Below, piece by piece: positions 1 through 42,421 of a stretch of 64,000 nucleotides of DNA. Where the stretch lies: positions 620,001 to 684,000 of the forward strand of contig JAPETS010000004.1 in NCBI GenBank assembly GCA_026023565.1, read 5' to 3'. The DNA comes from Cirrosporium novae-zelandiae (lineage: Eukaryota). The first letter of the stretch is position 1. Every line of letters starts with the position of its first letter. The notes under the pieces were generated by a model that worked only from the letters and a program-made list of their open reading frames with translations, was not told where the DNA came from and made no database searches. A program made the position numbers and the translations under genes.

Positions 1-1092
1 GACATAGAGAGAAAATCCCTCCAAAACATTCGTCGAATCACCCATCATCCAAGATGTGGAGGTCTTAAATTGTTTGTCCTCTGGCATGGAGGGATCAATA
101 GGACCAGGTACAGATACATATCGGTCAGATGGCTCTAGCTTATCCAAATCAATAGGCAACTTATTTTCGGAGTCCTCTACTATCTTATTAAACGAATCGA
201 GCTGTTGACTAATCATTTTCAAATGATCATCCAATGGCATATCCCCATAGGTAACAATCTTAGCGTTGCTTGGATGGTAGTGATCTGCATGGAACCTTTT
301 CAGGCGTTCGTATGTTAAATCTGTAATCTTCTTGGGATCTCCTCCGGAGTTGTTGATTGCCGGAAATATGTGGTCGTTGAACTGGACATAGAATTCTGAG
401 TCGGGATCTGACATTACACCCTTCATTTCATTATAAACAACGCCTTTGAATACCAGCTTGCTATCTTTCTCTTGAGGATCCTCAGGCGCCAACCGCCACC
501 CCTCTTGGAGGAAGTCATTCCGGCTTAGCAGTGGATGGAGCGTAGAATCAAGGTAGACAGAAAGTAGGTTCTGGAAATCTTTTCGGTTCGTAGTAGCGAA
601 TGGGTATATTGTATGATCGGGATAGGTCATGGCGTTCATGAAGTTGGAAAGAGATCGCGGAAGCATCTTGAAGAAAGGGTCTCGAATAGGGAATCTTGTT
701 CAACATTAGCTATACATCTTAGCATATTTAGCTTTTGCAGTTCTTTACTTTCGACTTCCGCATAATGTTGTATGCTCGAGGATATGAGGGACACCAGTAT
801 CATCCGGTGGGTTGGTTTTGAAACCGATAGAAAAAACATTGTTATTATCATTTCGAGCAACATGGAGTAAATTTGCACCAGTCATGTTATGAGTGAGATG
901 AAAGGCCGTAAGTTGAAGCTCAGGCACATGCTTTGTCCGCAGTAATGTGAAGCCATGAAGCTGTTCCTGTGGTTTTGGATAATCTAAATTCGCGACATGG
1001 GCGAACTTCCTTTTGCTTGGAGGGAATAGTAATCTGGGTATGGCGGGAAGGTTAGGACTTTTCAAGGTCAATCGGGAATGCAAACGCAACAT
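1..1092 (-). CDS. CYM1: Mitochondrial presequence protease (pitrilysin/M16C metallopeptidase); 3' part runs off the window
   Basis: HILEH inverted zinc motif in [14 protein letters not shown]. Intron 748-695 (GTAAAG..GCTAAT..AAG) joins to [24 protein letters not shown]. Basic, presequence-like N-terminus. Confidence 0.93.
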
Positions 1093-1702: not shown

Positions 1703-2345
1703 TTACCATCGAACCGGCCGGTGTGTTGCGTACTGCATGCCACAAGACTCGGAGAGGTGGTTAGTCCGACCACAGTATTTGCATGAGGGGCAGTCGGTGC
1801 TTCGCCGTCTCTTGTGGCCCTGTTGGATACCAGGAGTATTCTTTAGGTCATAATTCGATCTTATGGCTTCCGAGGAAACCAAGGGTTTCTTCCTAATAAT
1901 TCTCCAGAATAGCATGGCATCCTCATAAATTGCCGAGAGCTGTAATGGTTCTTTCCCTTGTTGTTGTTCAAGTGATGCGCGTGCCAAAACATCCTCTGCT
2001 TGGACCTTTCGTTTAAAGGAATCAAATTCGACCGGGAGGCCTTCGAGGAAAATCACAGATAGGAACTGATCCGGTAGCGACATCCTTCCATCTGTAAGTT
2101 GTTCAAGATCATGATTTTTGTTGCAAATATATTGATAGAATGTTTGAATGTCAGATTCGGTTTCACATGACCGAAGCTGAGCCTTTTTTAATTGAACGAA
2201 TGTTGTGTAAAAGGAGCCCTTGGTTGGGCCTGTGTTATCGTTGTGTAATTCTTGGAGGTCGCTTTGTCCAGCATTGATACCCTAAAGTATAGTGATTAGC
2301 CTTTTTTCTTTATTTTTTTCTAATGTGAGGAAGGTGATGGACCAT
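1703..2345 (-). CDS. Ty1/copia Gag-derived protein with a CCHC zinc knuckle (~193 aa, one predicted intron)
   Basis: ATG at 2345-2343, then intron 2342-2282 (GTCCAT..GCTAAT..TAG), then a frame open from 2281 to 1703. Contains LPDQFLSVIFLEGLPVEFDSF (UBN2/Retrotran_gag_2-like) and CKYCGRTNHLSESC (CX2CX4HX4C). Confidence 0.7.
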
Positions 2346-2562: not shown

Positions 2563-3224
2563 ATAAATTATCCAATTATTAACGGGATCACTGGGACTAA
2601 CCGACTTGTAGCTGAATCTCCACTGTGCGAGAAACCCAAGTGACGAGCGGACTGGACGGCAAATCCCCAATGTTTGAAAGATTATTTTCAGCCCAGTATC
2701 TACACAATTTCATCACCACCGTGCTAGGGGGTACTTATTGATAAAAAAAAGGATTGCTTCGGACCTTAGGATTGAATTCGCATTTTTATTCCGACGAATC
2801 GCTCCATTATTAACTTAATCAACATCTTGCTTCAAAGTCAGAACCGAGAGACACCCTACTACATAACCGAAACCTCTAAATCGCCGTCCTTCCACGCAGA
2901 TGACACAGCACGTCTTCGAGCCTTGAAATCGAAAACACCGCCTCGACGAAACTCTCCATTCATGATCGGTAAAGGTCTTTAGGAAGGCAGCAACGTGTTT
3001 CGCCACTGTACGAACCCACCTATAGACCCCTCACTCTACAGAAACCCAGCGACGCCTCCCGTCCATGCACCGAGACTTGGCTCCTTTCTTTTTCGGTGCC
3101 CCAACCGTGATATCGGCGCAGCTCGTTGAGATATTTCATCCACCAGATCAGTGTATTAAACAAGTTTGATTCAACCACTTTCCGATAACGTGGGATTAGG
3201 TGGAACGGCCCGTGGAAGACAAAA

Positions 3225-5100
3225 ATGGTACCTACAACACAATCACAGCATGCTCCCACTAGCTCTCGAGCATCTTCAATAACAAATGGGCATACGGGAA
3301 CCGCGTACGGTAGTGATCATGTGGACCCCTCACACTCTGCTGGACCGGCTCCAAATACAACGAAAAAGAGTAAAGACAGGAAAAGAATGGACCCAAATGA
3401 GGCGGCGAAGTTGGTATCCGCAAAAATTTCTCAATTAGAGCTGGATGCAGCGGGGGAGAAGGACCAGGAAGTTGAAATAGGTCAGTATATAATTGGATCT
3501 ACACATTGACGGGACCGAACTTCCCGCACTGAGAAGAGAGTCGTGTTGAAACCTGGTGGATCGCATATTCCTGCGAATAAAGGATTTCCAGTGTTTGCCT
3601 CTACTCCCTTTATACGAGTTATACCGCATAATAAAGTGCTCCCACTTATCATGCTTGCATGCTTTATAGTATCGAAGAATGATTTTGACTGATTATGTCA
3701 TAGAGCGCGACGTGAAAAAATCAATCCGAGATCTCAATCAGCTCCTTAACAGCGTCGAATCTTCAGGGGCCCGTATAGATCTTGTGCAAAAGAAATATGC
3801 AGAACTCCTTGCCGACATGAAGAGACTAAAACGAGAGCATGTAAAGGATAAGAAACGCGCCGACCAGCTACAGAAGGAGAAAGACCAGGGTAGATCGGAG
3901 CTCACCAAGGCAGTCACTATGAAGGACAAGTTGGAGAAATTATGTCGGGAATTGACTAAAGAAAATAAGAAGATCAAGGTTCGCTCTTCTAAATTCCGTA
4001 GAATATGCGGAAATGATCAAGGGCTGATACAGATCTTCTAGGAGGAACATAAGAGACTTGAGGAGTCGGAGAAGAAGGGCCGAGAAGTTCTCAATGATAA
4101 GTTTGATTCGATGCTTTGGGATGCGCAAGATGTCATGACACACAAGGAAAATCCAGAACACCAGAAACTAAATATGGAAATGGATGAGCTGTACGTTGTC
4201 CAACGACACCAATACTATAGCTTAGTGCTAAATGTCGACAGGTTCCGTCAAAAGTTCAGATCCTTTATTGAACAAAGCGAACTGCGAGAACTACATTTTC
4301 AGTCGCTCATGCGCAGCAAAGAACATGAAATCCAATACCACCTAGCAAGGTTTGAGCAGCAACGCAAAACGGCTGAAGCTGAGGCGGCCAAAGCCCGCAC
4401 ACTTAATGCGCAAGTGGCCACTTTCTCACATACTGAAAGCGAATTGAGGAGTCAGCTTAACATATATGTAGAAAAGTTCAAGCAGGTAATACCGTTTACC
4501 CCTTTTCATAATTAATGTTATACCCTTCGTAGTTTCGCCTTTTACTACTTATTTATGTTTCTATTTGCTACGTGCACTGGCGTAGTTTTCAACAAGAATA
4601 CCATTGTCTGACACTTGTCATCGCAGGTTGAGGATACTCTAAACAACTCGAATGACCTATTCCTAACATTCCGCAAGGAGATGGAAGAGATGTCTAAGAA
4701 AACCAAACGTCTTGAAAAGGAGAATCTGAATCTCACCCGGAAACACGATTTGACGAACCGAAATATCCTTGAAATGGCTGAAGAGCGCACTAGGATCAAC
4801 AAAGAAATGGAAACGTTGAAGAAAAAGAACGCAAATCTCGAGGGACTCTGTCGTCGAATGCAGGACCAAGGTCGTGGTCTCGTTGGCGATGACGAAGAAG
4901 CAACAGATAGTGAATATGATTACGAAGATGGTGAAGGTAGTGAGGAGGAAGAATATGACGAAGAAACGGAAGATGACGAGCAACAGAATATCGTTCAGAA
5001 TCCTCCTTTTATCGGCCCTCAACCACCACCGTTGCCGCCTGCTTCCCAGGCTTTGGCCAACGGGATGACGAATGTTTTGGTTAACGGTATGAAGCATTGA
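3225..5100 (+). CDS. Taxilin-family coiled-coil protein
   Basis: Multi-exon gene (first intron 3481-3703) with KLEKLCREL, QLNIYVEKFKQVEDTLNNSNDLFLTFRKEMEEMSKKTKRLEKE and an acidic C-terminus. Confidence 0.9.
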
Positions 5101-23173: not shown

Positions 23174-24682
23174 TCAACCCTCAAATACCCAACGTTGTTT
23201 GCCCATCACAGCCAGTCTCTCTAAACCGGCAGATTGCTGCTCTGCAGATGTATCTGGGTCAATGTCTAATAGACGCAGCACCTCCGCCAGCAACTTCGCA
23301 CCGATGACATATATCGGAATTGCCACATTGGGTGTCTGATTTGGATTGATGTGAAAGGGCATATCTGAACAGAAATGCATTGCCTCGTTAAAGCGTACAC
23401 GCAGATCTATGTCCTTAGTACTTCCTTGGGCGCCGAGAAGCTCGTGGATCACTGGCTGCATACGTTTGTTCAACTCAGCGTAAGTTTTGGTCAAAACTGG
23501 AGAGGTGAAGTGGAAATTGACCACCGCAGTGTCGTCCCGCATGGCGAAGCTAGCTTCATGACGGCCTTCGTGTAATAGGTCGTAATTGCTATTGTAGCTA
23601 TGTGCCAGCTTACCCAGGTCGTAGTAGATGTCGCTACATGGGTACCCACGTGGATCAACTAGCCAAAAGCGTTTCCCGGATACGTCGCAAAGAATATTCT
23701 CCAGGTGCAGATCGGCATGAATGAACGGTGACACACTACCAGGATCCAACCGGACTGCAGCTTTTTTACTCTGCTCAAGTTGAAGAAGCATGGCTGGGAT
23801 GTTTGGCAACTTTTGCCCGTTCACTTCAAGCCAACGCGCTTCAATGAGCCGATTGAATTGCGGATCCAGCTCCTTTGAGATGATAATGCGTCTCCACACA
23901 CGGTGATAGTGGTAATCGTGCAAGTAGTTGGGTGGTGTCGGTTGCTGGTAGCCAAGAAAGACCTGACGATACTCATAATCAAGCACCTGTTTCAACAACT
24001 CCACTGCCTCTGTCGGGCCAATTTGGAGGTTCAGCAACAGGTCGCGCAGGTTGGGGTACTCCTGATACTCAATGCCCATAGACACACCCCGTTCATCCTG
24101 TTCGGCGAATAGCAATCTGGGATAGTGGTCGCGCAACGGCGGCGGCAGTGATTTGTACAGCTGAACCTCGTCAAGGAGCTTAAGTGCACCGCGGCCACTC
24201 GCATTCTTGAAGAAATGCCGACGAATTCCGGACTTGGAAAACGAGCCACCGATACGTAATACATCAGTACTAGTGAACTGCTGTAGGGTGTATGCGGTAA
24301 TGCCATCGCTTCCACCCAGGGCCCGTACCGCGTCTTCGACATTGTCGTACCCCTGAGAGAAGCTCTTACGCAAGCTATCCCATGGCACTCGCGCAGCAAC
24401 AAGACGGCGCTGAGCTGGGCCGTCCCAGACTGTAAGACGCGAAGGCAATCGCACTGAGCTCAGGGTCAAGCGACGGATGGCCAAGTTAGTCAGTCCGGGA
24501 TGTGTGCCGATGAATACAACCTCACTGTGTGCTTGATACCGCTCAATCAAATATGCTATATCAGCGCCATAGTCAAGCTTGACAACATCTTTCAGGCCAT
24601 AAGAGGCCAAAAGATTTGCCAAAGCCTGGTTATCTTTGGCAGATCTGTCATCTGGATTGAGAAGAATTGCAAGCATCGTCAT
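23174..24682 (-). CDS. Intronless APH/choline-kinase-like phosphotransferase (protein-kinase-like fold), 502 aa
   Basis: Brenner-type motif FIHADLHLENIL, metal-binding LVDPRG, YYDLGKLAHS, and KLLDEVQLYKSLP..YPRL. Confidence 0.82.
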   Translation of the reverse strand: MTMLAILLNPDDRSAKDNQALANLLASYGLKDVVKLDYGADIAYLIERYQAHSEVVFIGTHPGLTNLAIRRLTLSSVRLPSRLTVWDGPAQRRLVAARVPWDSLRKSFSQGYDNVEDAVRALGGSDGITAYTLQQFTSTDVLRIGGSFSKSGIRRHFFKNASGRGALKLLDEVQLYKSLPPPLRDHYPRLLFAEQDERGVSMGIEYQEYPNLRDLLLNLQIGPTEAVELLKQVLDYEYRQVFLGYQQPTPPNYLHDYHYHRVWRRIIISKELDPQFNRLIEARWLEVNGQKLPNIPAMLLQLEQSKKAAVRLDPGSVSPFIHADLHLENILCDVSGKRFWLVDPRGYPCSDIYYDLGKLAHSYNSNYDLLHEGRHEASFAMRDDTAVVNFHFTSPVLTKTYAELNKRMQPVIHELLGAQGSTKDIDLRVRFNEAMHFCSDMPFHINPNQTPNVAIPIYVIGAKLLAEVLRLLDIDPDTSAEQQSAGLERLAVMGKQRWVFEG

Positions 24683-25829
24683 CTTTGTGAAGGTCTAAGG
24701 GTGAAATTGTATCTTGATACTGAAGAATATGCTTAAAGTAAAAAGGTTATAGGTTAGAGCTAACCGGAATATAGTGGCACTGAACTGCTTTATAAAACGA
24801 GTTCGATTCCTATCTCCCTCATAATCAGAAACAACAAGACTTGCCATCTTATCCAATGGCCTTAGTGAACTGATAATGTGCCGCTTTCGAGATTTGTATA
24901 GGTCCTTCCTATCTAGGATGATACGTTCAGAATATTCACCATGCTCTCGCCACTTCGTTCCTGTTGGATTCTTACGTAACTGCTCTACTCAGACCGCGTT
25001 TTAAATGTGCGGATAGTGGCTGAGTTCATCGCTTTCTTGCCACCTCGTGGGTCCTGATAGCTCTTCATGAATTGATATGGATGGGATCACAGCACTGTTT
25101 AGGGTATAGTTGCCACTACCCCTGGTAGTAATACCATCTATTATTATATCACACCGCTCGACATCACTCCCGTGCCTATAATCTAGTGAGCGTGTGCCAC
25201 TTTGCGGCTCGGACCGTCCGGGGATCCAGAGAAAGCTTCCTGGACATGTTAACCTTTTATTGAATCCCGCTTATATCTGCGTGGTTTCATGTACGGATAT
25301 TCTATGGTTGCAAATCCCAAAGGCTTGCTTATCCACTTTTATAACCTCTTCTGCTGACGTTATGAGCCTTAACTATAAGCAAGTAGTGATTGGAGGTGCT
25401 CCGCTCCACTCGATAGCTTTATCTGTTTACCCGCCAGTTTTTGCATGCATCTAAACGTTAAGTCCGGAGATGTGATGATCATTGTGATCAGGTCGGCGAA
25501 TTCACAATCACCAACTAATTCAATGTATTGGTTGATAAATTTCATCACATCTCATTTTGTAATTTCAAACTCTTCATGCCGTGCAGCAGACAGAGAAATG
25601 CCCTTTGTATTCACACCTCTTTTATTTTCTCGATCGGAAGACCTAAATTCATTCTCCCTCGGGGAGCATCCTATAGCATAGGTTCTGGGGAGACTTGTTG
25701 AGTGGCTTTACGAAGGGCGCAGTCAGCCAAGCTTTTACATATAGTCAGATCTATAATGAAAGTTGCCTCTAGTTTACCGCCTCCCTGAGACAATCATAGA
25801 CTAAGGCTTACATCCTACTATTCACGACA

Positions 25830-40579: not shown

Positions 40580-42421
40580 GAGAGGCTGGTCGGGTCTTTA
40601 GCCAGACCCAGCTTTTAGCCGAAAACACCACAATTTCAATTATTCAAGCACAATCGACCAACTTATATATTAATTTACATAGAATTGCCCTATATAATTT
40701 TTTATTGGGGTAGGAAATTCCTAAGAAGCTGGCTTTTTTTTATTAAGCAATTTTGGCTTTCCCCGTTTTCTTCCCCCCGATTTTTTAATTTTGTCCTGCT
40801 CTTGTTTCTCCCGCTGTCTCTGCAATTCGCGCTCGATATTTTGTTTATCAGCAAATCGATTATTTAAGTCAATTGTCAGTTTTGCACGCGTATTACGTTT
40901 GAAAGTGCTTATTTCAGCTTGCGTTTGCTTGAGTTGTATATCTATTAAACCTTCGTTGAAGCTCTGTTGATCGAGTTGTTTATCGATCTTATTTATCAAG
41001 GTCCGGAAGTCTCGATTTGGTACTACGTCGAGGTTTTCTACCAATTTTCCTAGCTGTTTTCTGTTGTGGGGGGTGTCGAAGAGCTTAGGGGAATTCGATT
41101 GAAAGCGTTCAGGGGACGGGGTAATCACTCTAGGGGGGGGAAGAATCGAATTTTTGAATTCGGAAGAAGTAAGTACCCGGTCAGGGTTATAAAAGTAGAT
41201 TCCAGCTCTTTTCCACCCAGCTGCAATTGTCCGACGAGTCAAATATTTAGTACGAGCTTTGTTGTACGTAGTAATGAATTTGTTTTTTTTAATAGGTGCA
41301 GCGTTATCCTATATAGAAAGATTTTCAATTTCCTTTTTGTATGCGTTTTTCAGGGGGGAAAACACGCCTTTATCTAAAGGTTGTAGCAAATGAGATGTAT
41401 AAGCAGGCAAATATAAGCATTGTACGTTGTTTTAGTGGCATAACCATATAAATTCTGGGGATATATGACTGTTATACCCATCAAGTAGCAAAATTCGAGC
41501 CCTAGGCTTATTCGGAGAAGTATAAGAAAGAAAAATAGTCCGCAACCACGTGATAGCAATCTCATTGTTCGTCCAACCATTGGGGGAAACAGTATAATAT
41601 ATATTGGGGACCGAATTATTGAACCAAGCGACCATAAGGTTCTTCCCTTTGAATATAATAAGGCATGGAATATATTTTCCCCGAATAGACACAGTTTCCA
41701 ATATAGTGACCCAGTCACGATTCTCCGGTACAGTTTTAGTCGTATATCGTTGATTTGCACGCCCAATAACCTTAGTAGTACTGGTGCATGCCCCCATTGC
41801 AACCCCCATTTCATCCATATTCCATATATCCCCTAGCTCGACTTTGTACTCGGCCTTAGTGCGTTCGAAAAGGGTAAGGAAGCCGGTAATGTCATCGGCA
41901 GTAAGACAAGCTCGGTCGGTCGAAAGAGGTCGACTTTGAAGGATTTTAATATCATCGTGTCGATTAACAAATCGAGTTACCCATTTCTGACCAAGCGAGC
42001 TTGGTCCAGCGAGATATTGGGCGACATGGAGAATAAAATAGCGTACGAGTTTGAATGTTGGGGCTTGACCTCGGTCATCTAGAAGCTTTATCCAATTGAT
42101 TATTGCAATTTCTTGATTATCGGTCAAAAGTTGTTGTTTTGTATGCGATTTGCGCATTGGTTGATAATAACCGTGAAGTCGATTTGCTAGCGTAGATCGA
42201 TTAACCCCATACATAGCCGCAGAAGCTCGGATACTTGAGAAAATGCCTTCATTATAATCAGAAATAGCTTTTTGCAAAGCTGCTTCATCAACAGATTGAT
42301 AAGGCATTGTGGGGGTGATAAATATGAAGAAGTTGATTGAGGGGTGAGTTGGAGATGAGGTGGAAGTTGGTGTTTTTTTCGGCTAAAAGCTGGGTCTGGC
42401 TAAAGACCCGACCAGCCTCTC
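40580..42421 (-). mobile_element. Full-length pogo/Fot1-type (Tc1/mariner superfamily) DNA transposon, 1842 bp
   Basis: 46-bp perfect TIRs GAGAGGCTGGTCGGGTCTTTAGCCAGACCCAGCTTTTAGCCGAAAA. TA TSDs at 40578-40579 and 42422-42423. Confidence 0.96.
40721..42307 (-). pseudogene. pogo/Fot1 DDE transposase with two premature stops
   Basis: N-terminal HTH, WNMDEMG, GWTNNE, LLDGYNSH, LLQPLD. One continuous frame with stops at 41434-41432 (TAA) and 41311-41309 (TAG). Confidence 0.93.

Follow-up and report, generated by a model that had tools for sequence, protein, structure and literature searches.

A copia half-Gag, probably co-opted, between CYM1 and taxilin in Cirrosporium novae-zelandiae

The open frame and its neighbours

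Cirrosporium novae-zelandiae is a fungus dwelling on wood. The genus is described as monotypic and placed in an isolated class, and its sexual morph is given as not known (PMC6712537). The window analysed here, a stretch of 64,000 nucleotides, is part of a 998-kb contig within an assembly of 31.4 Mb, and close to its beginning a minus-strand frame (P0001) is located between two housekeeping genes, an M16 peptidase (CYM1-like) and taxilin, as had been read from the sequence alone (Table 1). That sequence-only reading had furthermore extended the frame by 66 codons above the ATG at 2083, and the frame is indeed open from 2281 to 1706 and closed by a TAA at 1705-1703, hence 192 codons are open, 66 of which precede the internal ATG. 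When the interval between CYM1 and taxilin was shuffled 2000 times by dinucleotides, a frame as long as P0001 arose in 15 cases. The zinc knuckle described as perfect is so, as C167-C170-H175-C180 match CX2CX4HX4C exactly, a motif which was met at none of 920,836 six-frame codon positions in 460 kb of other DNA from the same genome. Its zf-CCHC score (14.1 bits) lies below the cut-off of 20.8, and the knuckle of the genome's real Ty3 Gag scores 14.3. The inferred starts of P0001 and taxilin are 879 nt apart, and the intergenic stretch possibly serves both genes as a shared promoter; within this likely promoter region a 10-nt unit is repeated three times head to tail (2526-2562). Elsewhere in the window, a frame of 506 codons (23174-24694, minus strand) looks intronless and, by eye, phosphotransferase-like.

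Table 1. Coordinates of P0001, its parts and its neighbours (positions within the window)
Feature	Position	Strand	Basis or remark
CYM1-like presequence protease gene (M16 peptidase), 5' part	1..1092	-	gene start 1092, 610 nt downstream of the P0001 stop
Half-Gag frame P0001, 192 codons plus stop	1703..2281	-	ORF list and translation
CX2CX4HX4C zinc knuckle, 12 residues ahead of the stop	1742..1783	-	exact motif, residues 167-180
Ty1/copia capsid C-terminal domain, residues about 23-127, five predicted helices	1901..2215	-	profiles and models
Residues 67-80, comprising the internal ATG (2083) followed by helix 3; second half of the predicted dimer surface	2042..2083	-	ESMFold2
Helix 1 (residues 23-32), half of the predicted dimer surface, upstream of ATG 2083	2186..2215	-	ESMFold2
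Putative 61-nt intron; donor GTCCAT non-consensus, TAG acceptor and branch point good	2282..2342	-	signals only
Branch-point-like GCTAAT	2295..2300	-	sequence motif
Candidate start ATG, which would form exon 1 by itself	2343..2345	-	A-rich context resembling the CYM1 and taxilin starts
Exon 1 of the ab initio public model (222 aa)	2874..2963	-	same acceptor (TAG, 2282), weak donor at 2873
Taxilin gene	3225..5100	+	inferred start 3225; head to head with P0001

With respect to flanking element features, a repeat search around P0001 returned no LTR-like repeat, and a profile built from 53 copia loci identified no protease remnant downstream of it, while the same profile ranked the genome's copia relic first; the absence of protease, pol and LTRs, as noted from the sequence, was thereby borne out. 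A protease-like word seen downstream by eye was discarded, as it obtained no profile score whereas the copia relic did. Likewise, a perfect 12-nt inverted repeat which flanks P0001 (1602-1613 and 2359-2370) was put down to chance, since 298 of 500 shuffles carry such a repeat; no target-site duplication was seen by eye. When the assembly was searched, P0001 yielded one match only, by protein and by DNA (both counts being lower bounds), so the copy number check that had been proposed returned a single match and not a series of copies within LTR elements. What marks an autonomous or a Gag-only LTR retrotransposon, namely LTRs, a downstream protease or pol and several copies, was not found at P0001.

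The start codon and the putative intron

The sequence-only reading had joined P0001 to a lone ATG by a 61-nt intron, resulting in a protein of about 193 aa. All elements of this proposal are present, i.e., the ATG (2345), the GT (2342), the GCTAAT (2300) and the TAG (2284-2282), and once the 61 nt are removed, a continuous frame of 193 aa results; the donor is the part which does not hold up well, as GTCCAT ranks 230 among 256 hexamers. It scores under every one of the 26 introns with coding flanks that were called in this genome (from 460,500 bases, one of them hand-corrected), and is placed at the 22nd percentile of a noisier, unfiltered set of 51 introns; a second GTCCAT donor elsewhere in the genome turned out to be a false call. 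At 61 nt, the intron would have a length usual for this genome. A TAG with a CTAAY branch upstream was found at 315 of 43,296 stop triplets, and 20 of these have in addition an in-phase ATG-GT 44-90 nt upstream. The public model (Table 1) uses a donor at 2873 which is as weak as GTCCAT, and its exon 1 is probably wrong. A further 28 in-frame donors with an upstream ATG were found, and every one less than 180 nt away scores below 0. At 2355 (minus strand), 74 nt upstream of the acceptor, there is a possible GC donor by which the ATG at 2466 or 2496 would be connected in frame; it scores poorly too.

Other routes to a start were considered. That the TAG at 2284 is read through or edited was dismissed, as the frame upstream is without an ATG, and one frameshift from the ATG at 2345 was dismissed too, as the TAG at 2284 is still met. 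Several out-of-frame ATGs precede the internal ATG at 2083, and helix 1 is located upstream of it, so that the predicted dimer surface would not be made without a splice. In our judgement some splice into 2281 is an evenly balanced proposition, and use of the exact 61-nt intron is doubtful. The premise that gag genes normally lack introns requires a caveat, because plant Ty1/copia elements are reported to splice a Gag-only RNA (PMC5580714); the splicing described there takes place around the protease domain and not after the start codon. Moreover, a putative intron was reported for the gag region of Crtg14 (PMC8321522).

Relation to copia Gag and the predicted dimer

A check against Pfam (Retrotran_gag_2, zf-CCHC) had been proposed for P0001, and it returned no call: neither the whole protein nor its helical parts matched a family, the only signal being the sub-threshold knuckle. 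P0001 stays below the curated cut-off of PF14223 (Retrotran_gag_2) and was not among the candidates when this genome was searched with that family. As the standard searches were silent, copia Gags were gathered for a profile of our own from metagenome contigs picked by their protease motif (80 of 109 loci examined); two further copia motif scans of viral contigs returned nothing. PF14223 recognises 21 of the resulting 22 copia Gag seeds (E up to 0.001), and the remaining seed (L065) is without a Pfam hit. Using a profile from which the knuckle was left out (19 seeds), P0001 scored 9.5 bits (P 4e-5), a value exceeded by 1 of 2000 shuffles, and HMMER placed it at the top of 205 frames from its own genome (8.9 bits vs 6.9 for the next). 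With hhalign it was likewise first of 205, with a score of 24.3 (none of 150 shuffles exceeded 17.8) and a probability of only 15%. Shuffling everything except the knuckle gave 5 sequences in 2000 that reached the real score. On the knuckle-containing profile host CCHC proteins outscore P0001, and the genome's one Ty3 Gag matches at the knuckle alone. The profile signal is modest yet consistent, copia Gag having been chosen deliberately as the single family to compare.

On the whole-Gag profile (258 positions) P0001 covers 119-253 only, collinear from the capsid C-terminal domain (CTD) to the knuckle, and three frames upstream of P0001 gave no signal for the capsid N-terminal domain (NTD). A whole Gag, as the earlier wording would imply, is therefore not what the locus holds. 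A profile of the matched region finds Drosophila Copia CA, Ty1 p22 and Drt2 in the PDB, a result which is driven by its 20 seed rows, and a PDB sequence search with P0001 itself gave one knuckle match (E 1.8). For P0001 as a whole the Atlas returned an unnamed ascomycete cluster (0.94); for residues 18-135, its ranks 2, 3 and 8 were clusters of PF14223 (0.82-0.84), which serve as leads only.

Structure prediction was carried out with two programs. Single-sequence AlphaFold2 models of P0001 reached a pLDDT of 35 and 46, with five helices in the second, and four fold searches with these low-confidence models gave no standout and no capsid, which does not exclude the fold. ESMFold2, given residues 7-135 and the sequence alone, predicted a symmetric homodimer (0.66 vs 0.05 for the best of 3 controls) with a pLDDT of 78-79 and at least 85% of the contacts agreeing between runs. 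Of 30 microbial homodimers, 21 reached the dimer mark used, and of 23 monomers none did, the eukaryotic figures being 17 of 29 and 0 of 30; as only 1 of 7 eukaryotic pairs without an older solved relative passed, the pass of P0001 documents likeness to known dimers and not binding. The predicted contacts Y25/F28/V29/K32 and M67/L69/F73/I77 have a spacing equal to that of p18m residues 266/269/270/273 and 302/304/308/312, which are described as its Dimer-1 residues on helices 1 and 3 (PMC13709905). By prediction, P0001 would be a CTD without NTD that pairs via helices 1 and 3, though the prediction may be a memory of solved dimers.

The copia-Gag origin proposed from the sequence is hence upheld without a Pfam call, as the knuckle-free profile, hhalign and the predicted dimer agree, and P0001 very probably derives from a copia capsid CTD. 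Consisting of this domain and the nucleocapsid knuckle, it corresponds to the p22/Drt2 half of Gag and would be unable to build a capsid alone; for this reason p22 and Drt2 provide a better comparison than Arc or PEG10. In Saccharomyces cerevisiae, Drt2 (PMC10951436; PMC13709905; PDB 9rxy) is likewise a Ty1/copia gag gene at a host locus which keeps the p22-equivalent CTD region but no longer a usable 5' half; it comprises 169 aa vs 193 aa for P0001, and the dimer surface is the same by prediction. For Drt2 alone, a recognisable element relic, 91.5% identity to a live target, transcription, purifying selection and restriction were reported, whereas P0001, known from its sequence, has no element trace or target that was found, carries a CCHC knuckle and may obtain its start from an intron. 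Ty1 p22/p18 (PDB 7nlg, 7nlh, 7nli) is also a copia-superfamily Gag reduced to its C-terminal half, and it dimerises by helices 1 and 3, as predicted for P0001; p22 is made by the element from an internal transcript, whereas P0001 stands by itself between host genes.

Crtg12 and Crtg13 of Dothideomycetes (PMC8321522) are, like P0001, single-copy fungal genes derived from copia gag and without pol. They are described as detectable with PF14223, about 710 and 870 nt long, common to several families and neighboured by an AbiEii-domain gene and by PTZ00376 and ACPS genes, respectively (PMC8321522), whereas P0001 is not detected by Pfam, is without the NTD, and no orthologue of it was found. Being longer, Pfam-detectable and differently placed, they are not the gene described here. 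Crtg9 of flowering plants (PMC8321522) is a co-opted gene, as P0001 probably is, with the architecture Retrotran_gag_2 plus zf-CCHC; unlike P0001, it is a plant gene of about 700-730 nt which frequently occurs in tandem and is conserved in synteny (PMC8321522). Among the papers listed by our literature search, no CTD-only domesticated gag outside Saccharomyces was found.

Decay of other elements, co-option and the proposed role

P0001 carries no RIP signature: its composite index is -0.73 (CYM1: -0.78) and its substrate index 1.32, vs 0.37-0.68 in 7 broken RT loci, the thresholds being background values. Eight of ten fetched RT loci were measured, the eighth being intact (0.98), and 29 of 31 RVT_1 matches in this genome contain stops. 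Within the window a pogo/Tc5-type transposase (HTH_psq, HTH_Tnp_Tc5, DDE_1; 40724-42307, minus strand) had been read as damaged by RIP; its two internal stops (TAA, TAG) are there, whereas bulk indices of 0.85/1.14 indicate RIP that is light at most. The sole copia relic found (L042; G000:C51, about 60-63.5 kb) has a decayed gag and integrase, with 9 stops per 420 codons of the gag-region frame, no RIP signature and a substrate index of 1.16. It shows no useful similarity to P0001, and its decayed integrase fetched no relatives.

Further loci were recorded on the way. A 618-codon frame (L044:2162-4015, minus strand; G000:C52, near 275260) has a weak F-box at its N terminus (Pfam E 0.017) and, at its other end, a CCHC knuckle of copia style, which reaches 36 bits with the knuckle-containing Gag profile; it is possibly a second captured Gag piece. 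On very short contigs, an intact Ty3-type Gag piece (L029; G000:C15, 1234 nt) and an intact 1080-codon pol frame (L030/L040; G000:C3) probably represent a collapsed young Ty3 family. Identical zf-CCHC matches at nearly the same coordinate of two contigs (L010, G000:C35:391543; L011, C47:391542) suggest that the assembly may hold duplicated contigs.

All flanking element features are gone around P0001, yet its frame, its knuckle and its predicted interface are complete, and on this basis, an intact frame beside erased flanks, its domestication is plausible. The contrast with the broken transposon remnants favours co-option of some kind, which we regard as somewhat likelier than its opposite. 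Co-opted gag genes were recognised by shared synteny or host-like phylogeny together with natural selection (PMC8321522). For P0001, only its own public model (222 aa) was recovered as a homologue among 5.8 billion clusters/1.84 billion representatives, two further phmmer matches were tandem-repeat junk, and a metagenome scan with the protein gave 122 pattern matches, none of them confirmed. No orthologue was thus found, and, the genus being monotypic and its class isolated, close relatives are thinly sampled. Codon use was equalled by 52 of 300 synonymous randomisations, and as the same holds true for CYM1, the codon test is weak.

The main rival explanation is that of a neutral remnant, i.e., a copia fragment left by deletions or partial insertion which has not yet acquired a stop, next to splice-like signals that arose by chance, and from which nothing useful is made. 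The poor donor, the lack of an orthologue and the unremarkable codon use all suit this explanation, the locus was moreover chosen for being intact, and a single copy evades RIP without selection, as the copia relic exemplifies. On the other hand, at the stop density of this relic 192 equally old codons would be open in about 2% of cases (Poisson estimate), there is no flanking trace of NTD, protease or LTR, and no parent family was found in the assembly; furthermore, neither the knuckle nor the predicted dimer surface is damaged, and the frame starts just ahead of the CTD, following a branch point and an acceptor. On balance we consider a neutral remnant unlikely.

Where co-option is assumed, its likeliest reason would be restriction, with P0001 acting as a lattice-poisoning factor, a tentative proposal to which we give somewhat less than an even chance. 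It assumes that the host retains half of a Ty1/copia gag, that is the CTD and the knuckle without NTD, protease, pol and LTRs. Transcription would start from the stretch held in common with the head-to-head taxilin gene, and an intron ending at 2282 would provide a start upstream of helix 1. Through its Dimer-1 surface the resulting 22-kDa protein would pair with an incoming copia Gag at the CTD of the latter and, lacking an NTD, would lead to dead-end assembly intermediates, as yeast p22/p18 and Drt2 do. For these, a CTD without NTD was reported to block particle assembly of the cognate Gag (PMC13709905; PMC10951436), and restriction in yeast was described as subfamily-specific, Drt2m being 91.5% identical to the target region (PMC13709905). 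In the present assembly, which is possibly incomplete, no cognate copia target was found, the one decayed relic being without useful similarity; RVT_2 gave no match, and as the controls gave none either, its absence is not established. Given a near-identical partner family and RIP, a 580-nt copy should be RIP-marked by the background thresholds, and P0001 is unmarked. The missing cognate copia and the unmarked P0001 together argue against a present-day restriction role, and P0001 may have outlived its target. An extended version, according to which P0001 is an independent host-integrated p22-type factor with an intron after its start, the divergent side of the taxilin promoter, RIP escape by divergence and a part in the extinction of copia elements in the lineage, was considered improbable.

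Alternatively, P0001 could have been co-opted for a role outside defence, as a small dimeric RNA-binding or scaffold protein whose CTD dimerises while the knuckle and a basic linker bind nucleic acid. Everything in favour of co-option applies here as well, and the failure to find a target family, together with the absence of RIP marks, fits a long independence from elements. RNA binding would moreover account for the retained knuckle, as p18m was reported to restrict without the nucleic-acid chaperone region (PMC13709905). A lasting function would be expected to leave orthologues, whereas P0001 is not conserved outside this genome (sampling being thin), and no direct evidence points to any target; we hold such a role to be rather unlikely. 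That P0001 is no Gag at all but an orphan host gene combining a CCHC knuckle with an unrelated helical domain would agree with the missing Pfam family of the helical part, the modest profile scores and the higher scores of host CCHC proteins on the knuckle-containing profile, yet is very improbable, since two programs place P0001 first of 205 without the knuckle, the dimer predicted without an alignment has the Dimer-1 spacing, the Atlas leads include PF14223 clusters and Pfam misses a true copia Gag among the seeds as well.

Taken as a whole, P0001 is a real half-Gag which was probably co-opted, with putative splicing, possible selection and a function proposed from its architecture. If neutral, it would be an ordinary remnant. 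If under selection, the half-Gag 'lattice poison' known from yeast p22 and Drt2 would have arisen again in a distant filamentous fungus that possesses RIP, and such genes may lie below Pfam detection, so that surveys based on PF14223 would undercount them. P0001 would then present a case for how a transposon-derived defence gene avoids the defence that mutates duplicated DNA.
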